NCBI GenBank assembly: GCA_041391405.1
Contig: JAWKOB010000005.1
Coordinates: 6,297 to 70,296, forward strand
DNA length: 64,000 nucleotides
DNA from: Bdellovibrionota bacterium
GTDB lineage: Bacteria > Bdellovibrionota_G > JALEGL01 > JAGRMV01
Direction of reading: 5' to 3'
The notes beneath the pieces were generated by a model. It was not told where the DNA came from, did no database searches, and worked only from the letters and a program-made list of their open reading frames with translations. A program made the position numbers and the translations under genes. Below are positions 9,259 through 57,402 of this stretch, piece after piece (the first letter of the stretch is position 1; every line of letters begins with the position of its first letter).

Positions 9259-9903
9259 GTGGTAGTGAATCAAAGAAATTCACGTAACGCCTTCACATTA
9301 ATCGAACTTATTTTCGTGATCATTTTGGTCGCATTGATCACGACTGTCGCGATCCCGAAAGTTTCATCGACCCTGGGTTTGAACATCAAATCCAGCGTGC
9401 TTCGTGTTACTGGCTTTCTGCAAGCTGGCTATCAGCAAGCCATTCTGACGCACAAAAAAATCCGTGTGACCTTCAACATGGATACGGGTCAATACTGGGC
9501 CGAAAACATGGCCCCTGCTGAATCAATTCCATTGATCAATGAAACCACGAATTTGGACGAAGTTCTCAATACCTTTCGCAAACGCGAAGAAGAGGAAAAT
9601 TCCAACGATCCCGAAGAAATCAAGAAGCGCGAAGAGGCAAAGTTCCAAAAGATTGAATCGGTGGTGCTCAAATCCGGTCAAATCGAGCCTCCGCTGAAAA
9701 TCAAATCGATCATTTTCCCTGGCGAAGACAAGACAGAAACCCAAGGGACAGTTTCATTTTTCATTTCCGGATCTGGAATCAACGAAGAAGTCATCCTGTA
9801 CATCGCCCATGGCGACAGCGACAACGTTTACAGCATCATCTTCCCACCGATGACCGGCAAAGCCAAGATCGAGAAGGGAGAGTATGTCGCTTCCAAAAAA
9901 TAA
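9259..9903 (+). CDS. gspH: Minor pseudopilin, GspH-like
   Basis: Prepilin-type N-terminus RNAFTLIELIFVIILVALITTVAIP. Assigned by position directly after gspG. Confidence 0.6.
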   Translation: MVVNQRNSRNAFTLIELIFVIILVALITTVAIPKVSSTLGLNIKSSVLRVTGFLQAGYQQAILTHKKIRVTFNMDTGQYWAENMAPAESIPLINETTNLDEVLNTFRKREEEENSNDPEEIKKREEAKFQKIESVVLKSGQIEPPLKIKSIIFPGEDKTETQGTVSFFISGSGINEEVILYIAHGDSDNVYSIIFPPMTGKAKIEKGEYVASKK

Positions 9904-10468
9904 ACTCTCCGGCTTTACGATGGTTGAAGTGATGGCTGCAATGCTCATCCTTGCCATTGTGTGCGTCGCATATTCTGAAAATCAAGTCAGTGCGATCCAG
10001 CTGGTGAAAGCGACACGCTTTCGTGACACTGCTGTGATGCTGGCTCAGCAGCGTATGGCCGAAGTGAACTTTCTGGTTCAAAGCCGTGGTGTGGAGGAAA
10101 TCAAGGAAGATGAACGTGGTGACTTCGATTCCGAGAAATTCGAGGGATACACATGGCACATCACCAAGAAAATGGTTCCTGCTCCTGACTTTTCTGCCCT
10201 GCTTTCTGCCGCAGGCGCAGGTGACTCCGAAGAATCCGGTGGTCAACAACAACCAACCGATCTTTCAGGTCCAATGAAGATGATCATGGATGCCTGGGGC
10301 AAATCCATCATGGAAGTCAAACTTGAAGTCTTGTGGAAAGAAGGAGAGCAGGAAAAAAGTTATTCGATCATGACGCACTTCATGGCATCGAATGCCAATG
10401 CACAAATTCAGGGCGTGATCGGTGGATTGGCCGGAGCGGCAGCTCAGGCTGGTGGGGGCGCACAGTGA
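9884..10468 (+). CDS. gspI: Minor pseudopilin, GspI-like
   Basis: N-terminus LSGFTMVEVMAAMLILAIV. Assigned by operon position. Confidence 0.6.
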   Translation: MSLPKNKLSGFTMVEVMAAMLILAIVCVAYSENQVSAIQLVKATRFRDTAVMLAQQRMAEVNFLVQSRGVEEIKEDERGDFDSEKFEGYTWHITKKMVPAPDFSALLSAAGAGDSEESGGQQQPTDLSGPMKMIMDAWGKSIMEVKLEVLWKEGEQEKSYSIMTHFMASNANAQIQGVIGGLAGAAAQAGGGAQ

Positions 10469-11244
10469 CCCAACGACGAACAACCGGTTTTACACTTGTT
10501 GAGTTGATGCTTGTGATGCTTTTTCTGGCCATCATCGGCGTATACACATGGACCTATTTAAAAACGACACTCAACACGCAAAAAACCATCGAGCAGAAAA
10601 TTTCAATTCAGCAACTTGGACTTTCCGTGATGAGTCGCCTGCAAGAAGACATTTCCCAGGTATTTTTGGTTGAATCTTATCAAAGACTCAGCTTCTTCAA
10701 TGGTGAAGCACGCACCCTCACCTTTTCAACGCTTTCACATGATGCTCCGAATCCGGAGGACCGTGAATGCGAAGAGGCAGAAGTGACTTATTCCTTGGAC
10801 AGCGATCCTGAATCCACCGAGACCCAAGTCTTGCTTCGCAAAGAAGTTCCTTTTCTGGATGGTGAACAGGAAAAAAACGACACCTACCAACCTTTGATCG
10901 TGGCTCGTCAAATCAGCAGCCTGGAGTTTGCTTATTCAGATGATGGAGTGAAATACGTTGATGAGTGGAACACGGCCAATTCCGATCATTTGAACAAGCT
11001 TCCCAAACTCGTTCGCATTCAGCTCACCATCAAAGATCCGGAAGGGCGCGAAGAATACTTTGAAAGTCTGGTGGATCTGCCGATGACGGAAAATCTCAAT
11101 GTCACTGCACAAAACCTCGGCATGGGAGGTTCGGGTTCCAGCAGTAAAGGAAATTCAAAGAATCAACAGCAACAGCAACCCGATAGCTTGCTGACACCAA
11201 CCACACCAAGGAGAGGAGGAAACACCGGTGGCGTTCGCAAATAA
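10465..11244 (+). CDS. gspJ: Minor pseudopilin, GspJ-like (GTG start at 10465 inside ORF 10333..11244)
   Basis: VTQRRTTGFTLVELMLVMLFLAIIG follows GTG 10465, which overlaps the gspI stop. Size of about 260 aa and position fit GspJ. Confidence 0.6.
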   Translation: MTQRRTTGFTLVELMLVMLFLAIIGVYTWTYLKTTLNTQKTIEQKISIQQLGLSVMSRLQEDISQVFLVESYQRLSFFNGEARTLTFSTLSHDAPNPEDRECEEAEVTYSLDSDPESTETQVLLRKEVPFLDGEQEKNDTYQPLIVARQISSLEFAYSDDGVKYVDEWNTANSDHLNKLPKLVRIQLTIKDPEGREEYFESLVDLPMTENLNVTAQNLGMGGSGSSSKGNSKNQQQQQPDSLLTPTTPRRGGNTGGVRK

Positions 11245-12426
11245 ACTCCGCAAGAATTCCGGAATCGCCTTGATTTTCGTGCTTGGAACCGTGGCCATCA
11301 TCAGCGTGATCGCGATCGAAATGGCCCAAAAAGTTCAAATGGCCAAGATGATGGTGGTCGAACGTCGGGATAGTGTCAAAGCGCTGGAGTTGGCCAAGGC
11401 CGCCTATCGTTGGTCCTTGTTCAGATTGCAAATGGACACCACATTGGATCAGATCCCAGCCATTCCGGGAACCAACTATGGTGGCAAAAAAGACGACCTT
11501 TCTGAAATCCAGTGGACCTTTCCACTGTCTTACCCTTTTCCAGTGACCTCTATCCTCACCGGAACATCTTCCTCCGAAGAACAAACCACCCCATCTGATC
11601 CAGGTGAAGACGGCACATTTGCCAGCACCATCACAGTAGATGAAAGCTCTCGAATCAATTTGAATGATGTCGGATCCAGCACGATTCAAACCGGAACGCG
11701 CTGGTCCGGTGCCGCAAGTGTTCTTGTGGAATTTGCTGGCCTCCCTCGATTCCAATATTTATTTTCCGCCGCCTCCAACAAAAACATCCTCGACATCCTC
11801 GCGCGATCGATGACTGGACCGGATTCTGACACACAAGTGAACTATCTTCGCGGCGGCGATGAAGACACCGAATACAAAAACGAAAATGAACTTTCAAAGT
11901 CAAAAAAAACGGAAAATGTACACCGTGGACGAGATGCGCATGCTTGCACCCATGAACTACAAACTCTATGAAGAGCTCAAACCTTTTGTCACGGTCTACC
12001 CATTCGATGCGAAATTGCCGCGCGTGCGGCTTCTCCAGTGGTTCCGTTGGGAAAATCAACATCAAATACCGCGCCGGTGGAAATCCTCGCCGTGATTTTC
12101 GCCCAATCGGCCATGACCAGCAATCGTGCTCGTTTGGAATGCGCCCAGCTTTGGCCAAAATGAGAGGTGTGGCTGCATTTCGCTCCGTTAAACAGGGTAG
12201 CACCGAGCCGAACCTGTTTACCTTCCTTCAATCCAATTGCGGCGGGGGTACCCCAGAGAATGTTAAATCCTTTATCGATAGCGAAGTTCTTGGTATTTTA
12301 GATGTGCGTTCGGATGTGTTTCGCATCGAAGCCAGCGGGTTTGCTGGAGATATCGAGAAAAAGATCGAAGCCGTGGTGCTCAGATCTGGAGACAAGCCGA
12401 AAGTCCTCTACTGGAAAGTATATTAA
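11228..12426 (+). pseudogene. gspK: Minor pseudopilin GspK, at least 3 frame changes as sequenced
   Basis: The N-terminus SGIALIFVLGTVAIISVIAIEMA is typical of GspK. Later segments sit in other frames (YTVDEMRMLAPMNYKLYEELKPFVTVYP; GKINI..TAPVEILAVIF). The C-terminus is DVFRIEASGFAGDIEKKIEAVVLRSGDKPKVLYWKVY. Confidence 0.7.
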
Positions 12427-33319: not shown

Positions 33320-35858
33320 ATGTACAATCGCTCTAGGGGAAATATGAATCGTCAAATTCGAAAGCTGTCGCTCGCTGCACTGTCCGTCAGCCTTTGTGCT
33401 TGTTCAATGTTGGGTGAACGCAAGGACTCTACTCGCTTGGACATTGATCAAGACTCGCTTCCTCAGATCAAAGTTCTTTCAAAATCAACTTCCGGCTCTG
33501 ACAGCGTTTTGACTGCAGATAACTCCGGCAAAGATCCATTTAAGGTGGTTAACCTTACCACCAAGTACCTTCACCCATCATTAGATGCTTCCAAAGTTGT
33601 CCGAGACAAAAAGATCGGTCTCTTGCATGTCATGCAGGAAGAAGTCGATGGTGAGAAAAAATCTCTGCCCCCTGAGATAGACACCGCATCCCTGTTCTTT
33701 GGCTTGGGAGGTAAAATCACCGGTGACCTCGATATCATCGAAAATCCGGATGATGATTTGAAAGAATTGATCAAATTCGATGAGACAGCAGCTCAAACCA
33801 AACGCGAAGAAATGATTCAAAAAAACCCTTCATGTGAAGGCCACATCACCGATTTATTTGCACAAGGACAAGTGCAGTTTGATCTTAGCCAAACTCAAAT
33901 CTCCGACCTTGCCGCAAACACCATCAATGAGGGCAAATCCCTTAGTGCTGATGTGGAAAACGAAATCAAAGAGGAGCTTGCGAAAAGAGATCCATCCAAA
34001 GCGGATGATCCAATCGATGTCACTGAAAAAATATTCGGCAATCTTTCATCTGAAACTCAGAAAAACATTCGAGCTCTTTTCAAGCCAGATGTCGGATTGT
34101 TTTTCCTGGTGGAAACGAAACACTTTTCAATTTGTATTCCTGAATCCCGAAAAGATCTTCAAGCGTACTTACTTGATAAAAATGGACTTCAATCCATTCT
34201 CCCTGAAAACGTCAAAATCGAGGAATCTGCCGATGGTCTGATCGTCACCATCCGAACCATCCGCCAAAACGTCACCAAATCTGATCTAGATCAGATCAAG
34301 TTGGCCATGAAAGGCCAGGAAGATGAATCGATTCCATTCGGCCAACTTAAATTCGGAGACAAAGAAGTTCCCGTTTTCAGCAGCACACATAACGAAGTGA
34401 CTGAATATACTTTTCATGTGAATCTGCCTAAAAAAGAATCTGCTGAACAAGCATCCGACAACCCTGATGAACCTGAAAAAAAAGACGAGACAACACCACC
34501 CTCTGATTCTCAAACGGGACAAGTCTCTGAAGTTACCACCGCGGTTGAACCGTCTAACAAAGAACCTGTAACCGTGGAACACCCGAGCAAACACACTCTG
34601 CCGATCGATCAAAAAACCAAAGTTCAAGACGACATTTTGACACCAGTGATGCCAGCTCGTTCTGACAGCACTTTTACCAAAAGACTTCGACGGTTACACG
34701 CCGCGATTCGATTCCATCCACTCCAACGACCCTGAAAGGCGACAGCGCCAGGTCAGACACCTCAAAAACACGAACATCAGTTACCACTTCCGTAAAACTG
34801 GATGCACCCGTCGTTTCAAAATACAAACTCTCAAGTACGCCGATTTGGTATAGCCCACTTCACAATGGCTATGAACAGAACTTTTACGTGCAAGACGGTA
34901 AAAAATGGAAGTATGACCCTCAAGGTGGAAACTCCAATTTTTGGGATGATACCAAATTTAAGAAAGACGGTTTAACCGATGAAGAAGTCGAACAAAAATG
35001 CGCCGGATACGAATACATCCGAAACATGGTTTTCAACGTTGAGTTGCTTACTCCGGCTGAATTCAACAAATCAGACTACATCCAAACCCCAAACTTCACC
35101 AAAAGCTACCAAGATGTATTGTTTGACCAATTAAGACCAGAAATCGGCTATGACCAAATCACTGAACAAATGGTTCAAGCTTCCACTCATACACCAGCAG
35201 GTGCTCGTACCCAAGATTCAGAAGTCAAAGTATGCTTGGACTCAAAAAACCATTTCTCGCATTCTGGTCTACCAAAGAAACACGTTCTACCAACTTTAAA
35301 TATGAAGGATCGACCGTTGTATTCACGGGCAATGATTCCAAACATTGGTATCCACATTCGAATCAAGACCATTTCGTCAATAAGGGCAAACCTAGGGGAT
35401 TCAATCCTCAACGCATTCAAAATCCGCTCTCAAATATCACCATCATTCAAAATCCTATCACCAAAGAATATGCTGTATTGATGCAACTTGGATTCAAACG
35501 TAGCATCCCTGCCCGATTACTGATGGCATATATCAATCGCGATATGGTGACTGGATATTTGATCAGAGGCAGAGATTTTGTGCTGAACGAAATTGAAAAA
35601 GGATTCGCGGCAGGACCGGGACGGACCGGAAACGCTTATCTATGGCGGATTTACATTCGATCCGAATCAAAAGGTGAGCAATACGTGAATCTGCAATCAC
35701 CTAATCAGTTATCTTCGGCTGGCTATATAAGCCCCACCGATAACTACATTCCTTGGTCCATTGGTCACATTACATTCCCGGGTGAAAGCAACGTTTTGAA
35801 TCTTCCTATTCAACTCAACAAAAATATTCAAGCAAACAACGTTCTCGCCAAAAAGTAA
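33320..35858 (+). pseudogene. Large hypothetical lipoprotein (about 840 aa if joined), 2-3 frame breaks
   Basis: Signal/lipobox LSLAALSVSLCAC. ORF pieces 33320-34735, 34888-35481 and 35232-35858 read through in adjacent frames with no intergenic signals. Confidence 0.5.
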
Positions 35859-40172: not shown

Positions 40173-41125
40173 ATGAGCCAACTCCTCAACATATTGTTTT
40201 CTTCGGTTTTTCTGAAGATCATTTTATTCGCCATGTCATTTGTGGCGGTAATCATGCTGGTCTATTATTTGTTTCCTGACGAAGACCAATTGGCTGCTCA
40301 AAAACGCCTTGGCATGGAAGAAGACCGTATTCGTCCCAAAAACATTGCCCTTCTACGTTGGTTTTATCCGATCTACACCAACATCAATGCCTTGATTCCT
40401 CAGTACGCTCCCGAAAAAACCCTCAAGTGGATCGAGAATAAAAAGCCTTATTATCAACAGCGTTTGATTGTGGCCAACGTGCGTGGTGAAATCGGACCCG
40501 AAGAATTTGTGGCGTTTAAGGTTTGTATGGCGATTGTTGTGCCGATTTTGTTCTTTTATTTCGGTGGAGCACTCGGATATTCGATTTCACCTTTCTATAT
40601 TCCACTGATCATGGTTTTGGGATTTTTCTCGGCGGACATTTGGCTCAGGAAAAAGCCATTCTTCGCCAGAAGGCCATTTTGAAATCTCTACCGTACACTT
40701 TGGACCTTCTCACACTGTCCGTGGAAGCGGGTATGGATTTTATCGCAGCCATTCAACGTCTCACTCAACGCACCACCAACAACCCAATGGCGGAAGAATT
40801 CGGTCACATGCTCAAGGAAATTCGCTTGGGTACTGCGCGTTCCGATGCGCTTCGCAACCTGAGCAATCGCCTGGAAATCGAAGAAGTCTCTTCATTCACA
40901 ACGCTTTTGATTCAAGCCGATCAACTTGGCGCCTCAATTGGGGATGTGTTGCGCGCTCAATCCGATCAGCTTCGCACCAAGCGTTTTCAAAATGCGGAAG
41001 CTGCTGGCGCCAGAGCTTCTCAACTGATTTTGTTTCCGTTGATTTTTTGCATTTTCCCGGCCGTATTCATCGTGATTCTGGGACCGACATTGCTCAACAT
41101 GCTCACGCAAGGAATCTTCAGATAA
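40173..41125 (+). pseudogene. tadC: Tad/Flp pilus platform protein TadC (T2SS-F family), one frame break near 40620-40630
   Basis: LPYTLDLLTLSVEAGMDFIAAIQRL and GASIGDVLRAQSDQLRTKRFQNAEAAGARASQLILFPLIFCIFPAVFIVILGP. The pieces are 40173-40682 and 40523-41125. Confidence 0.85.
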
Positions 41126-41469
41126 TGCAAGCGTACAATCAAACTCGTCAAACCACCATCGCTCACCACGTTGAAAAAGCCCACACGATGTTTTCACGCA
41201 TGCGTGGATTGCTCGGCAAAAAAACCATGCCTGAAGGTTTTGGAATGTGGATTTCCCCCTGTTCCTCGATCCATACCTTCTTCATGAAGTTTCCGATCGA
41301 CGTTGCATTTCTATCCTCAGACCAACATGTGGTGAAAGTTCTACACTCTTTCAAGCCTTTCCGTTTATCATCATGGGAGCACTCTTCCTTAAGCGTACTC
41401 GAATTGGCGAGCGGAACGCTTCAGCAAAGTGGTACCCAAGTGGGTGACCGGGTGGTGTTCATCGCATGA
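41125..41469 (+). CDS. DUF192-family protein
   Basis: RMRGLLGKK...GMWISPCSSIHTFFMKFPIDVAFL...VLELASGTL...VGDRVVF. The ATG shares a base with the tadC stop. Confidence 0.75.
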   Translation: MQAYNQTRQTTIAHHVEKAHTMFSRMRGLLGKKTMPEGFGMWISPCSSIHTFFMKFPIDVAFLSSDQHVVKVLHSFKPFRLSSWEHSSLSVLELASGTLQQSGTQVGDRVVFIA

Positions 41470-52058: not shown

Positions 52059-52907
52059 ATGAAAAATCGACGCGCTCTGACATTTGCGATTCTACTCGGT
52101 GTTCTTTCCTTTTTCTTCCTGTTTTTTTACGTCAATTCCATGGAAAAACGCTACCTTGGCAAGTTTGAACAAGTGGGCGTGCTTGTCGCCAAAAATGACA
52201 TCGTACAGTTTGAAGTTTTGGATGAAACGATGCTTGAAATCCGCCAAATCCCAAAACCATATGTTCAACCTTTGGCCGCCACAGCTGAAGATTTGGGACA
52301 AGTTCTTGGCTACGTTGCATCAAACACCATCAAAAAAGGCGAGCAGATCGTCAAAACAAAATTGAACCTTCTGGGTGAAGAAGGCATTTCCCCGATCGTT
52401 CCCAAGGGTTTTCGTGCATGCACCGTTTCTGTGAATGAAGTCACAGGCGTCGGTGGTCACATTCGCAATGGTGACACGGTCGACATCATCGGTACATTCA
52501 AAACTTTGACGGACAAACGCGTGACCAAAGGAATGGAAGCTGTCACGCTCTTTCAAAATGTCCCAGTAATCGCCACCGGAAAAAACTATCGCTTTGATCC
52601 GCGTGTGCAGGCCAACAAAACCAAAGGCTCAATTCTGTCGATGCCGACACAATCATCCGGATTTTCCACGGTCACGCTACAAGTGACTCCTCGCATGTGC
52701 ATGGATCTTTCCATCGCTCAGCAAAGTGGAACGCTCACACTCGCCCTTCGTTCCTTCCACGACCGTTTCTCGGGTGACGTGATTGAAAATCTTAAAAAAG
52801 AACGCAGCACCACTGAATCTGTAACCGGAATCAAAGAACCTATACAAATCAAGGAGACCCCACAATGGTTAGAACAACGCGGAGATCAATCTCTCATCGT
52901 TCCATAA
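52059..52907 (+). CDS. cpaB: Flp pilus assembly protein CpaB/RcpC (TM + SAF-like domain)
   Basis: N-terminal TM LTFAILLGVLSFFFLFFYV. VLVAKNDIVQFEVLDETMLEIRQIPKPYV...TIKKGEQIV. Confidence 0.85.
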   Translation: MKNRRALTFAILLGVLSFFFLFFYVNSMEKRYLGKFEQVGVLVAKNDIVQFEVLDETMLEIRQIPKPYVQPLAATAEDLGQVLGYVASNTIKKGEQIVKTKLNLLGEEGISPIVPKGFRACTVSVNEVTGVGGHIRNGDTVDIIGTFKTLTDKRVTKGMEAVTLFQNVPVIATGKNYRFDPRVQANKTKGSILSMPTQSSGFSTVTLQVTPRMCMDLSIAQQSGTLTLALRSFHDRFSGDVIENLKKERSTTESVTGIKEPIQIKETPQWLEQRGDQSLIVP

Positions 52908-54382
52908 TTTCATCGGCGTTTTTGCTGATCGCGAGCGTATTTTTTATTGCGCCCGCTTTCGCTCAGCAAAATCAACCTGCAGATGAATACTTGGTGACGA
53001 ACAATCCGAAAATCAAAAACGTTTCCTACAGCATCGGTAACATCACGGTGGGCGATCCCAACATCGTGAACTTCAAAGCCGACCGCAAAAAAAATCGCAT
53101 CACTCTTTTCCCGAAAAATCCGGGAACAACCTCGATGATCATTTTCGATCAAAAGGGATCTCAGAAGGAAGTGCTGACCTTGGCCGTATATTCCACTGAT
53201 CCAGAAAAGCTTTTGACGGACGTTCGACAGCTTTTGGTCGACATCGAAGGCATCACGATCAAACGCGTGGGTCAAAAAATCATCATCGATGGCTCGGTCT
53301 TGCTGGGCTCTGAACTCAGCCGTATTCAGAAAATCTCCGCCAACACCAATCAAATCGTGAACCTTGTGACGATCAATCCGGACACGGAACGTTTGCTCGC
53401 CAAACGCATCTCCAAAGAAATCGGCATGGATGAAGTCAATGTTCGTTCCGTCAAAGGAAAAATCCTTCTCGAAGGGGAAGTGTATTCACCTGAAGCCAAA
53501 GTGAAGGCCGAAAAAATCGCTTCGCTTTACGCTGGCGCAGTCATCAACACGTTGGAAGTTCGCGCTGTACCGAATCCTCCGGTTCGCAAAGACACCGTTC
53601 AAGTCACCGCGCACTTTGTGGAAGTGGCCAAAAACTTCTCCAAAAACTTCAACTTCAAATGGAGCCCAATTCCGCAAGTTGGCGTCAACGCATCTTACAG
53701 AATCAATCCAGTTACCGGTTCCGACAGCTTCACCGGCGCATTGACTGGAACGGCGATCGACTTGCTTCCTCGCTTGAACGCATTCAAAGCTTTGGGTGTG
53801 GCCCGCGTTCTTGAAAATCCAACCGTCTCGGTGAAAAGTGGTGACACAGCTACGATCGAGTCCGGCACACAAGTTGGTTTCCCTGTGATTCAACCCAATG
53901 GTTCCGCTGCAATTGAATTCAAAAACGTCGGCGCCCTTCTGAAAATCAAACCATATGTTCAAGGCACCGACATCGACATGGAAATTCAAGTGAAGATGAG
54001 TTCGCTCGGTTCACCTGAAGTTTCCGGAGGTATCGCGATTTCCCAAAACTCGATCGACACCACACAATTGGTTCGCTCCGGTGAATCCGTGGTGATCGGG
54101 GGTTTGGTTCGCAATTCTTACAGACAAGCACTTGATCGTCCACCCAACACTTCAGGCGGTTCTGGTGGCAGTGCCAATACCAGCATGCCGACCGCGACTT
54201 CGGGACAATACGTGGATCCTTTTCCGATGGGATCGCTCTTTACACTCTTCAAATCCACCGAAGAGAGCAAACAGCGTAGCCAATTCATGATCTTCATCAC
54301 CCCGACGATCTTGAAATTCTCGAAAGATGCAAACAAAGAGCTCAAAGACAGCTTCAATTTGTATGAGGTTTATCCAAACTAG
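52865..54382 (+). CDS. cpaC: Tad secretin CpaC/RcpA
   Basis: Signal peptide, pilus-N domain (ITVGDPNIVNFKADRKKNRITLFPKNPGTTSMIIFDQKG) and secretin core (VLENPTVSVKSGDTATIESGTQVGFPV, LVRSGESVVIGGLV). Confidence 0.9.
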   Translation: MVRTTRRSISHRSIISSAFLLIASVFFIAPAFAQQNQPADEYLVTNNPKIKNVSYSIGNITVGDPNIVNFKADRKKNRITLFPKNPGTTSMIIFDQKGSQKEVLTLAVYSTDPEKLLTDVRQLLVDIEGITIKRVGQKIIIDGSVLLGSELSRIQKISANTNQIVNLVTINPDTERLLAKRISKEIGMDEVNVRSVKGKILLEGEVYSPEAKVKAEKIASLYAGAVINTLEVRAVPNPPVRKDTVQVTAHFVEVAKNFSKNFNFKWSPIPQVGVNASYRINPVTGSDSFTGALTGTAIDLLPRLNAFKALGVARVLENPTVSVKSGDTATIESGTQVGFPVIQPNGSAAIEFKNVGALLKIKPYVQGTDIDMEIQVKMSSLGSPEVSGGIAISQNSIDTTQLVRSGESVVIGGLVRNSYRQALDRPPNTSGGSGGSANTSMPTATSGQYVDPFPMGSLFTLFKSTEESKQRSQFMIFITPTILKFSKDANKELKDSFNLYEVYPN

Positions 54383-54384
54383 TT

Positions 54385-56538
54385 GTGGCTGAGAATGAAA
54401 AGAAGAATTATGTAATTAGTGTGGCTGGCCGGTCCCAAGGGCGGGACCGGCTCCTCTGCTTTTGCCGTCAATCTCGCTGCACGCCCTCCTTCGTCAAACC
54501 AAAAGCAAAAGTCCCTGATCATCGATTTCGATCTGCACGATTGTGGAGACGTCGCGCTCTTCATGGGCGCCAAAGACTTGCCTTCGATTTGATTTCGCCC
54601 CAAAGCTCCACAAAATGTCGGAATCGGAAGTCGAGAAGAACATCTACAAAAGCAGAGAGAATTTATCTGCCGGCCATTCGAAAGATCAAACAAGCCGGAC
54701 TTCTGACCTACGACATGGTTTCCAGCATGATCGACATGTGCCGCAGCCAATTTCAATACATCGTGGTGGATTGTGGCAGCCATGTGTATCCGTCCATGAT
54801 CAAAGCGCTGGAAGTTTCATCAATTGTTCTTTTTTGCACCACCGCCGAGATTGTGACGTTGAATCGCTCTGTGCAGTCGCTGCAAGATTATCAAGAATTG
54901 GCGTTTCCTTCGGATTTGATTCAGCTCATCGTGAATCAATACGATCCCAAAGGCGTGATCAATGAGGAACTCATCACGCAAAAACTCAAGCGCAAATGCC
55001 TGGGCTTTTTGCCCAATGAGATCAAGGAAATGCAAAACGCTGTCAATCAAGGTACTGCGATTTTTCAAACGCAACCTCGTGCAATCTATAGCCGCGTGAT
55101 CGAGGATTTGACCCGCAAAATTCTGACCAAAAACATTTTGCAGCCGGTTCAAGCCTTGAGCCTCAAAACGGCCAACCTTGCAGGACCTCAACGAGCCGCC
55201 GTTTCTACGGAAACATCTATCGCTCCCATGTCGAAAAACATCACCAACAAAGACGCGGAACGCATCGACAGCATCAAACAAAGAATTCACGCGCGCTTGA
55301 TTGATGTGATGGATTTCAAAAAGCTTTCACCTGAAGAATTGATGAAGCAGGACGACGAATCTATGGATGCGCTCAAAACCAAAACACAAGAAGCGATCCT
55401 GGGCATCGTATCCCGCATGAATGAAATCACCTCACGGGATGAGCGACAATTGCTCGTCAAAGATGTGTTGGATGAAGCCATCGGACTTGGCCCACTTGAA
55501 GATCTTTTGAAAAATCCGGACGTCAGCGAAATCATGGTCAACCGCGCAGATCAAATCTTTGTGGAGCTCAAAGGAAAGCCAACACTCATTTCCTCGAGAT
55601 TTTCCGGAGATAAGCAATTGATGGGCGTGATCGAACGTATCGTTGCACCGATCGGTCGCCGAATCGATGAAAAAACACCGATGGTCGATGCGCGCTTGAG
55701 AGACGGTTCTCGTGTCCATGCGATCATTCCGCCTTTGGCTCTGGACGGTCCGGTTCTTACCATTCGTAAATTCAGCAAAGATATTTTGGGCCCCGAAACC
55801 TTGATCAAATTCGGCGCTATGACCGAAGAAATGTCGGACTTCCTGCGCGCATGTGTGCAAGCCAAACTCAACATCATCATCTCGGGTGGTACCGGAACAG
55901 GTAAAACGACGCTTCTAAACACGCTGGCGAGCTTCATTCCAAACAATGACCGCATCATCACCGTCGAGGATTCGGCGGAGCTTCGACTGGCGCAAGAACA
56001 CATCGTACGTCTGGAATCCAGACCCGCAAACCTTCAGGGCGAAGGTGCGATTCCGATCCGTGAACTTGTTCGAAATACGCTTCGCATGCGCCCGGACCGA
56101 ATTGTGGTGGGTGAATGTCGTGGCGCCGAAGCACTCGATATGCTTCAAGCCATGAATACAGGTCATGACGGCTCGATGACCACCATTCACTCCAACTCTC
56201 CGCGCGACTCCATCGCTCGTCTGGAAACACTGGTGATGTTTGCCGGAATGGATCTTCCATCCAAAGCCATTCGTGAACAAATTGCGTCCGCTGTTCAATT
56301 GATTGTGCAGTTGACACGAATGGGCGACGGATCCAGAAAAATCACCGCCATCACCGAGGTCACGGGGATGGAAAGCACCACAGTTTCATTGCAGGATATT
56401 TTCCAATTCAAGGAAAAAGGCGTAGATGAACAAGGTAAGGTGCTGGGAAGCTTCCTGGCCACGGGTCTCGTCCCGACCTTCGCACAAACATTCAAGAAAA
56501 AAGGCATCAAGCTGCCGAAAGGATTGATCGGTGGGTAG
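54385..56538 (+). CDS. cpaF: TadZ/CpaE-like ParA-type ATPase domain read in frame with the CpaF/TadA secretion ATPase (apparent fusion; first ~90 codons frame-broken)
   Basis: In a shifted frame: VISVAG-PKGGTGSSAFAVNLAA (deviant Walker A), then YIVVDCGSHVY...IVLFCTTAEIVTLNRS. After a linker comes CpaF: IKQRIHARLIDVMDF, ISGGTGTGKTTLLN, RIVVGECRGAEALDMLQAMNTGHDGSMTTIHSNS. There is no stop between the two halves. Confidence 0.8.
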   Translation: MAENEKKNYVISVAGRSQGRDRLLCFCRQSRCTPSFVKPKAKVPDHRFRSARLWRRRALHGRQRLAFDLISPQSSTKCRNRKSRRTSTKAERIYLPAIRKIKQAGLLTYDMVSSMIDMCRSQFQYIVVDCGSHVYPSMIKALEVSSIVLFCTTAEIVTLNRSVQSLQDYQELAFPSDLIQLIVNQYDPKGVINEELITQKLKRKCLGFLPNEIKEMQNAVNQGTAIFQTQPRAIYSRVIEDLTRKILTKNILQPVQALSLKTANLAGPQRAAVSTETSIAPMSKNITNKDAERIDSIKQRIHARLIDVMDFKKLSPEELMKQDDESMDALKTKTQEAILGIVSRMNEITSRDERQLLVKDVLDEAIGLGPLEDLLKNPDVSEIMVNRADQIFVELKGKPTLISSRFSGDKQLMGVIERIVAPIGRRIDEKTPMVDARLRDGSRVHAIIPPLALDGPVLTIRKFSKDILGPETLIKFGAMTEEMSDFLRACVQAKLNIIISGGTGTGKTTLLNTLASFIPNNDRIITVEDSAELRLAQEHIVRLESRPANLQGEGAIPIRELVRNTLRMRPDRIVVGECRGAEALDMLQAMNTGHDGSMTTIHSNSPRDSIARLETLVMFAGMDLPSKAIREQIASAVQLIVQLTRMGDGSRKITAITEVTGMESTTVSLQDIFQFKEKGVDEQGKVLGSFLATGLVPTFAQTFKKKGIKLPKGLIGG

Positions 56539-57402
56539 TTCATTCAGCATACTCAGTTCATTGATTGTCGTGATGTTCATTGGCGGGGCTGCTTTTTTTG
56601 GTTACCCGTGGGTGGAAGAATTCACACGCAAAAAACTCGAAGGTTACCTGCAAGAATGTGAACTTCTATTGCATCGCATGTTTAAGGAAATGCCGCGCAA
56701 GAAAATGATCATGATCATTGCCGGATCCACGTTTTTCTTGGGTTTGGTGGGTTTTGTTCTCACATTGGGGTTTGGGTGGATCAATATTTTGTTCACGGTC
56801 ACACTCGCGGCCATCGGCTATCAGTCTTTTCGCATGTGGCTGAAATTTTTCTGGGAACGTCGACTCAATGAATTCAACGAACAACTGGTGGATGCGCTGA
56901 ACCTTTTGGCCAATTCCCTGAAATCTGGATTGAACCTTTCGCAAGCATTGCAAGTGTTGATTCAGGAGAGCAAACCACCAATGTCCCAAGAATTTGGCTT
57001 GGTGCTATCCCAAAGAAAATTGGGGCTCACCATCGATGAGGGCCTTGGAAAAAATGCTCGAGCGCATTCCCAGCGACGATCTGGCCGTTGCTATCCACTC
57101 GGTTTTGATTCTGCGCGAAACGGGTGGCGTCTATCTGAAACATTTGAAACCATCGCCTCGACCATTCGCGAACGTAGAAAAGTTTCTGGAAAGATCAAAT
57201 CGATGACCCAACAAGGCAAGATGCAGGGCTTGATCCTCCTCCTTTGCCATTCGGTCTTGGTGCCATGCTTTACGTCGTCAACCACCGTACATCATTCCAC
57301 CTGGTCACCACCCAACTTGGCTGGATCATGATTTTTGTGATGCTGATGTTCCAGGGCGTTGGCGCCCTCTGGATCAAAAAAATCGTCAATATCGACGTTT
57401 AG
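56531..57402 (+). pseudogene. tadB: Tad/Flp pilus platform protein TadB (T2SS-F family), several frame breaks
   Basis: FNEQLVDALNLLANSLKSGLNLSQALQVL. Shifted frames give LEKMLERIPSDDLAVAIHSVLILRETGG and the C-terminal TM GWIMIFVMLMFQGVGALWIKKIV. Stop at 57400-57402. Confidence 0.8.

Follow-up and report, generated by a model that had tools for sequence, protein, structure and literature searches.

The window analysed here is a stretch of 64,000 nucleotides (nt) from an uncultured Bdellovibrionota bacterium whose genome is an incomplete metagenome-assembled genome (MAG; 58% complete). It carries a tad locus in which cpaB, cpaC, a fused gene that we refer to as tadZA and tadB lie together at 52059-57402, with tadC at a separate site (Table 1). 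The GTG of tadZA is found 2 nt downstream of the cpaC stop (TAG 54380-54382) and the frame that it opens runs through a ParA/MinD-type ATPase module and on through a complete CpaF with no stop codon between the two, as an earlier note made from the letters of this DNA had described. That note had also placed a Walker A-like PKGGTGSS about 15 codons from the GTG and in a shifted frame, and we located the motif there, one frame over from the assembled open reading frame (ORF). With the GTG directly behind the secretin gene and the Walker A so close to it, there is no room in the window for a receiver domain.

Table 1. Features of the tadZA gene, its neighbours and the indel clusters in the window. 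aa, amino acids; NTD and CTD, N- and C-terminal domain; P0001, closest database relative; L013, L014 and L015, contigs of relatives introduced in the text; A1, alignment of 13 fused proteins.
Feature	Position	Strand	Remarks
cpaB/rcpC, upstream tad-locus gene	52059..52907	+	282-aa ORF; 92% identity to L015 gene with Pfam RcpC/SAF
cpaC/rcpA secretin	52865..54382	+	505-aa ORF; 92% identity to L015 gene with Pfam Secretin
tadZA open frame as assembled	54385..56538	+	717 aa plus stop, GTG start; ORF listing
TadZ-like ParA/MinD module, aa 1-250	54385..55134	+	no receiver domain ahead; Pfam CbiA/AAA_31 on intact P0001 aa 10-211
Burst of five frame-breaking indels	54422..54668	.	DNA alignments with L013/L014/L015; probable assembly error
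Walker A-like PKGGTGSS (K-G-G-x-G-x-S)	54434..54457	+	one frame off assembled ORF; three-frame translation
Walker B-type strand YIVVDCGSHVY of ParA module	54757..54789	+	same frame as complete CpaF
ParA motif IVLFCTTAEIVTLNRS	54823-54870	+	same frame as complete CpaF
Linker, aa 251-289	55135..55251	+	variable, A/P/S/T/Q-rich; about 40 aa; gapped, poorly conserved in A1
Internal in-frame ATG (MSKNITNK)	55228..55230	+	alternative CpaF start proposed earlier
TadA/CpaF motor module: three-helix NTD1, NTD2, CTD	55252..56535	+	aligns to C. crescentus CpaF 68-480, E 1.7e-123
CpaF Walker A GGTGTGKTT	55885..55911	+	aligned to GGTGSGKTT of CpaF
CpaF Asp box ITVEDSAEL	55957-55983	+	aligns to C. crescentus CpaF box
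CpaF Walker B region RPDRIVVGECRG	56089..56124	+	aligns to C. crescentus CpaF box
CpaF His box NTGHDGSMTTIHSN	56155-56196	+	aligns to C. crescentus CpaF box
tadB, start overlaps tadZA stop	56531..57402	+	orthologues intact, 290 aa, Pfam T2SSF
tadC (T2SSF), then DUF192 gene	40523-41469		Pfam
Indel cluster against L015	48014-48514		10 indels; tadE-like gene
Indel cluster against L015	49057-49480		3 indels
Indel cluster against L015	50870-51124		6 indels
Indel cluster against L015	54430-54665		5 indels; tadZA
Indel cluster against L015	57040-57300		5 indels; tadB
Indel cluster against L015	62952-63982		15 indels; H+-pyrophosphatase gene hppA

The fused frame and its two modules

The C-terminal 469 aa of the product are the part that aligns to the solved Caulobacter CpaF. 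In that protein NTD0 (residues 1-79) is a disordered part that extension can do without, and a three-helix motif occupies 80-149 (PMC11300603). Pfam recognises T2SSE at aa 367-651 (E 2e-63). The closest database relative, P0001 (716 aa, 94% identical), is encoded on the Logan contig L014, and its full-length model shows helices at 286-365 followed by alpha/beta domains, with the CpaF domain definitions taken from the same structural work. Between the window and P0001 the CpaF half is 97% identical, with 183 synonymous and 11 non-synonymous codon differences. Judged by these alignments the motor half is complete and all its catalytic boxes are kept.

With aa 94-717 of the product, its in-frame part, as query, 30 related genomes were searched in six frames. 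One frame of 704-738 aa without a stop over both modules was found in 14 relatives of the family, order and phylum (all five same-family genomes, most of those of the same order and one of the same phylum), and at least one genome from outside the phylum has it as well. Their translations have an in-frame Walker A of the GPKGGVGKT type 5-25 residues after the start and then continue into CpaF. A collection of 5.8 billion proteins was also searched. Most among the 120 matches listed were of 700-755 aa with a query coverage of 95-100%, and most carried PF01656 (mostly PF13614 too) plus PF00437; the named ones were annotated merely as “TadA”, “CpaF” or “MinD”. The nearest relatives in that collection (P0001-P0012; 716-719 aa, 82-94% identity) are intact in all 12 cases. 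At the junction of the two modules (55100-55300) the one difference between the window and the closest relative is an in-frame +3 indel at 55194 and the assembly is clean there, so that the fused reading is independent of the damaged stretch at the 5' end of the gene. The covalent link between a TadZ/CpaE-like ATPase and CpaF that the earlier note had proposed is thus borne out by the orthologues, which are consistently one gene, and the comparison of sequences leads us to conclude that the TadZ-TadA fusion is real and conserved.

Two relatives deviate. In a 96%-complete genome of the same order (G011) the best match is a stand-alone CpaF of 489 aa that aligns to the motor part, and no fused copy was seen in it; its fusion gene may be lost, or may have escaped detection. 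On the otherwise clean JGI contig of a close relative (3300056827, Ga0558118_00156) an extra C (CGCCC vs CGCC) is present at the linker/CpaF boundary (L013:3954, equal to L015:9954) and divides tadZA into a called ParA gene of 306 aa and a called CpaF gene of 409 aa (P0032). A homopolymer error would account for the extra C, as would a natural fission of the fusion; the 409-aa call would drop the first helix of the three-helix motif. The same contig has an 86-bp insertion with a long inverted repeat, like a terminator or a miniature inverted-repeat transposable element, between the secretin stop and the tadZA start (L013:2989-3074), where the gap in the window and in L014 is just 2 nt.

The full-length model of P0001 is folded at 9-248 and 286-716, with residues 249-285 free of secondary structure and a predicted local distance difference test score (pLDDT) below 50 at 263-286. 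The linker is thus unstructured and the predicted template modelling score (pTM) of the model is 0.41, which leaves the orientation of the modules relative to each other undefined. In position the linker corresponds to NTD0, the disordered part of stand-alone CpaF.

The space ahead of the ParA module was scored in 80 named genome loci that had been found by alignment of fused proteins, together with the presence of a stop-to-stop frame shared by both modules. Eleven of the loci have a fused gene; these are from Bdellovibrionota, two Omnitrophota, a WOR-3 and an unclassified genome, and all have at most 36 residues before the module. A separate tadZ/cpaE beside cpaF was found in 46 loci, from Bacillota, Actinomycetota, Acidobacteriota, Chloroflexota, Planctomycetota and others; one of these genes is cut by a contig end, and all 45 complete ones have 98-391 residues ahead of the ParA module. 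Fusion and loss of the receiver domain therefore coincide without exception in the 56 complete loci, and the absence of a receiver-like domain, seen by the earlier note in the window, holds for the fused copies at large (at most 36 aa before the Walker A, against 98-391 aa in complete separate tadZ).

Separate TadZ proteins of tad loci scored 75-183 bits with a hidden Markov model of the fused ParA module, and Soj-like paralogues from the same Bdellovibrionota genomes scored 40-52 bits. In a maximum-likelihood tree these paralogues branch away at 100/100, and 20 of the 22 fused modules form one clade with a support of 90/90 that consists of the Bdellovibrionota (100/96) plus the Omnitrophota. 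The two remaining fused modules sit on long branches outside this clade and their placement is not possible in the tree. The model of the intact orthologue's module (pLDDT 91.9) has a generic ParA/MinD fold and its best PDB match is 3ea0, with template modelling (TM) scores of 0.86/0.92, followed by MinD, Soj and FlhG (TM about 0.75). Considering context, profile scores and tree, the N-terminal module belongs with TadZ. Identity with MinD was rejected on the same three grounds, although the fold alone cannot tell TadZ from MinD or Soj.

The Walker A-like motif of the window matches the consensus K/RGGXGXS/T given for TadZ in a preprint discussed below and lies within the range of 58 TadZ modules. 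In canonical TadZ this motif varies as KGG.G[KTSAC][ST], a range that includes both KGGTGSS of the window and KGGTGTT of its closest relatives. In the Walker B-type strand, D129 and G131 are shared by all 13 fused proteins in alignment A1; alignment A2, of 58 TadZ modules, has D129 in at least 90% of them. The genus-level clade formed by the window and P0001-P0008 has Thr or Ser at the position of the P-loop lysine (KGGTGTT, KGGSGTT, KGGTGSS), and more distant fused orthologues retain KGGVGKT/S. Since canonical TadZ shows the same variability of the Walker A, the module may in some lineages bind ATP without hydrolysing it.

Comparison with known Tad ATPases

The same architecture was reported in July 2026 for tad locus 1 of Bdellovibrio bacteriovorus HD100 by Tesseur, Denise, Santin and Laloux (bioRxiv 10.64898/2026.07.08.737194), who described a hybrid ATPase, TadZA, with a TadZ region that lacks the atypical receiver domain (ARD), a Walker A-like motif and a flexible linker. 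In that organism tadZA and tadB form an operon within the locus and tadC is encoded separately. According to the preprint the TadZ region plus the linker are necessary and sufficient for binding the polarity hub RomR in a heterologous (POLAR) assay, TadZA is enriched at the invasive pole by imaging, full-length tagged protein (TadZA-msfGFP) is seen by immunoblot and depletion of tadZA-tadB blocks prey invasion. It covers the fusion in B. bacteriovorus only and does not discuss its spread. The architecture is therefore already described and the window gene is an orthologue of the described protein; the earlier note's view that such a fusion is unusual in a Tad system stands, but it is no longer undescribed.

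The window gene shares with B. bacteriovorus TadZA the fused frame, the lack of an ARD, the linker, the adjoining tadB, the tadC located elsewhere and the phylum, and its ParA module falls in the well-supported Bdellovibrionota clade with that of Bdellovibrio sp. HCB288. It differs in belonging to an uncultured lineage, with P0001 44% identical (best segment) to the HCB288 copy, and in the Thr or Ser at the P-loop lysine position (KGGTGTT / KGGTGSS), where most others have KGGVGKS/T. Moreover the N-terminus of the window gene is frame-broken as assembled, and RomR binding, localisation and essentiality are known from B. bacteriovorus alone.

With the canonical pair TadZ/CpaE and TadA/CpaF (Caulobacter crescentus; Aggregatibacter) the window gene has in common the two ATPase folds, their order, the position directly after the secretin gene and a ParA half homologous to the tad-locus TadZ of many phyla. 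Canonical TadZ is encoded by a separate gene upstream of tadA, with an N-terminal extension of 98-391 aa that holds the ARD. In tadZA, in contrast, the receiver domain is absent, the intergenic stop is gone and the linker stands in place of the CpaF NTD0. By far the best match to the TadZ module in both sequence (E 1e-35) and structure (root mean square deviation 1.8 Å), the ParA-family ATPase 3ea0 of Chlorobium tepidum, which comes from structural genomics, resembles it in being a bare ParA fold of about 245 aa without a receiver domain; unlike it, 3ea0 is a stand-alone protein, and its function is unstated. It may be a stand-alone ARD-less relative of TadZ.

Frame breaks at the 5' end and alternative readings

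The earlier note had suspected a sequence problem around 54380-54700. When the window DNA was aligned with L014, which carries the intact P0001, and with L013/L015 from the 437-kb JGI contig, five frame-breaking indels appeared in this stretch, more than had been seen before. They are a +4 (a tandem duplication of TGGC at about 54422-54430), a +1 at 54478, a +2 at 54511-54514, a -2 at 54589 and a -5 at 54665. All five fall within 245 bp and add up to 0, so that one frame remains open from the GTG, and as a consequence most of the text in codons 1-93 of the 717-aa ORF is out of frame. A ParA N-terminus can be read piecewise in the two other frames, as LAGPKGGTGSSAFAVNLA... LIIDFDLHDCGDVALFMGAKDLPSI and then DFAPKLHKMSESEVEKNIYKSRENL, and returns to the long frame at ...LPAIRKIKQAGLLTYDMV, which explains why the window's own protein gives only a sub-threshold CbiA/ParA signal in Pfam (aa 103-212). 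The KGGTGSS at 54437-54457 lies out of the frame of the assembled ORF, and the equivalent Walker A is in frame in all relatives. Once the indels are discounted, the burst stretch is 77% identical to P0001 with both KGGTGSS and DFDLHDCGD intact, and it shows 26 synonymous and 19 non-synonymous codon differences, several of the latter being alignment edges beside the indels.

Bursts of this kind are not confined to tadZA. Against the syntenic L015, to which about 12 kb could be aligned, the final 16 kb of the window show 46 indels whose length is not a multiple of 3, with more deletions than insertions. The bursts extend over 250-1000 bp each and hold 3 to 15 indels, about one per 65 bp (about 1.5%), with clean kilobases between them. 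The genes struck include two large TadE/TadG-type genes, besides the tadE-like gene, tadB and hppA; in the 3' part of tadB a frame switch is seen in tblastn, and the five indels there are of 1 bp each. The pair L014/L013, which is equally diverged, has 2 such indels in 5.3 kb. As essential-gene controls rpoB and rpoC were sought and are absent from the 58%-complete MAG, and hppA was used as a conserved control. Same-strand ORF overlaps at 9259-12426, 34888-35858 and 40173-41469 gave no sign of a frame break, and where recognised by Pfam these ORFs are separate genes (N_methyl pseudopilins, T2SSJ, tadC, DUF192), so not every overlap in the window is an error. Where genes under strong constraint contain patches with about 1.5% indels, the patches resemble assembly segments that are unpolished or of low coverage and do not resemble decay. 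On this comparison of sequences we consider the frame breaks over the Walker A very probably an assembly error and not biology. In its true form the gene probably has MAENEKKNYVISV-AGPKGGTGSS... in a single frame. Patchy error of this sort may also lower the completeness estimate of the MAG.

The breaks could instead be real, the nucleotide-binding start of TadZ having decayed in this lineage. The product would then be a 717-aa protein made up, in this order, of about 93 out-of-frame residues, two-thirds of a ParA fold and a CpaF that is intact. Such decay would fit the uninterrupted frame from a GTG coupled to cpaC, and the close JGI relative is also frame-broken in this gene, by the 1-bp insertion at its linker. 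Further points weigh against our reading of the gene as an intact, mis-assembled tadZA. The indels are not linked to homopolymers and one is a 4-bp tandem duplication, so that a simple homopolymer error model fails. Their sum of exactly 0 keeps the frame open and can be read as selection, with chance alone giving such an outcome 1 in 3 times. They were judged only by comparison with relatives of 80-94% identity: a same-species assembly was not found, an exact 38-mer search of metagenome contigs returned 0 hits and the nearest database relative has 94% identity. The only solved TadZ, 3fkq of Eubacterium rectale, has a related ParA-type ATPase domain (E 3e-8 by profile, Foldseek E 4e-11) preceded, unlike the window module, by an N-terminal ARD, and it is a weaker structural match (TM 0.65) than 3ea0, MinD, Soj or FlhG, so that the assignment to TadZ rests on context, profile scores and tree. 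Finally, no RomR-like protein was found among the 10 receiver-domain matches of the 58%-complete MAG: none of the three inspected looked RomR-like, two more have NtrC-type lengths, and the result is uninformative given the incompleteness of the MAG. The docking partner proposed below is therefore taken from B. bacteriovorus alone. Against decay stands the TadZ N-terminus itself, which remains conserved under the indels with synonymous changes outnumbering non-synonymous ones; five indels without substitutional decay are unlike the ageing of a pseudogene. Similar bursts strike other genes of the window in short patches between clean kilobases, and all 12 closest database relatives are intact. 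We regard real breaks as quite improbable, and the partly out-of-frame protein that they would yield as equally so. As read in the three frames, tadZA moves by +1 three times over its first 280 nt, which might be decoded by programmed ribosomal frameshifting or some other recoding rule. The indels are however unlike in size and sign, they share no slippery motif, the relatives encode the same protein in one frame and equivalent bursts are present in unrelated genes. Programmed frameshifting was rejected on the first two of these grounds, and we give recoding of any kind a practically negligible chance.

A different alternative concerns the junction. The two modules could be made as separate proteins with CpaF starting at ATG 55228 or nearby, as the earlier note had suggested, and the fusion would then be only apparent. 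An in-frame ATG does sit in the linker, and the single extra base in the JGI relative divides the called gene into a ParA and a CpaF. Yet the 12 nt upstream of this ATG hold no Shine-Dalgarno-like motif, the Met of MSKNITNK is present only in the closest relatives in the alignment, and no place in the linkers of 21 orthologues consistently offers an in-frame start preceded by such a motif. None of the 14 relatives has a stop between the modules. The full-length tagged TadZA detected in B. bacteriovorus, where TadZ plus linker is a functional RomR-binding unit, also speaks against two products, and the proposed internal start is very unlikely. Taken together our results make it highly likely that the window gene is the orthologue of TadZA of B. 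bacteriovorus tad locus 1, that it makes one polypeptide of about 716 aa and that the frame shift is not biological.

Possible role and origin of the tethered TadZ module

As one polypeptide the product starts its TadZ module about 10 residues past the initiator and leads, through an unstructured linker of about 40 aa, into a complete TadA/CpaF. By homology the CpaF part would form a hexameric motor under the TadB/TadC platform and power both extension and retraction of the Flp pilus. By analogy with B. bacteriovorus, six tethered TadZ modules with their linkers could then dock this motor to a polar landmark, RomR in that species. Modules of the ParA/MinD type dimerise around nucleotide, which we assume for the tethered TadZ modules as well. 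RomR has a degenerate receiver domain of its own that may replace the lost ARD. Tethering would fix the stoichiometry of positioning module to motor at 1:1 at the prey-invading pole, and it may couple positioning to the state of the motor.

From an evolutionary point of view the fused modules are mostly of one clade (20 of 22), and fusion and ARD loss go together in the 56 complete loci, leading us to speculate that the ARD-less TadZ-TadA fusion was a single ancient event. It would define a distinct Tad subtype common to Bdellovibrionota and Omnitrophota, and possibly to scattered WOR-3 and unclassified genomes, a proposal for which we see about an even chance. If the event was single, loss of the ARD and tethering to the motor would have occurred together, with polar docking passed to a receiver-type hub such as RomR; on this transfer our opinion is equally divided.

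For the window itself the outcome is mainly that the annotation is settled. The gene should be named tadZA and kept as a single gene, with a flag for probable mis-assembly at its 5' end, and should not be labelled a novel architecture or a pseudogene. Beyond the window, the TadZA known from one model predator is a phylum-wide trait that is common to the Omnitrophota too, and the fusion is always accompanied by loss of the receiver domain. This constant pairing supports the idea, put forward in the preprint, that a partner protein took over the polarity function. That work is modestly extended here by the distribution of the fusion and its strict coupling to ARD loss, and the TadZA fusion offers a simple sequence marker for a predator-type Tad machine. 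The indel bursts serve as a warning that frame breaks in a MAG should not be taken as biology without the reads.

Elsewhere in the window, at 9259-11244, lie several consecutive genes for minor pseudopilins of type II secretion or type IVa, with N-terminal methylation motifs and a T2SSJ domain among them. On another contig of the same genome (G000:C2:54105-55142) lies a second, short CpaF/TadA paralogue with an open frame of 368 aa that is 48% identical to the motor core and has no three-helix N-terminus, resembling the extra tadA paralogues reported for B. bacteriovorus.

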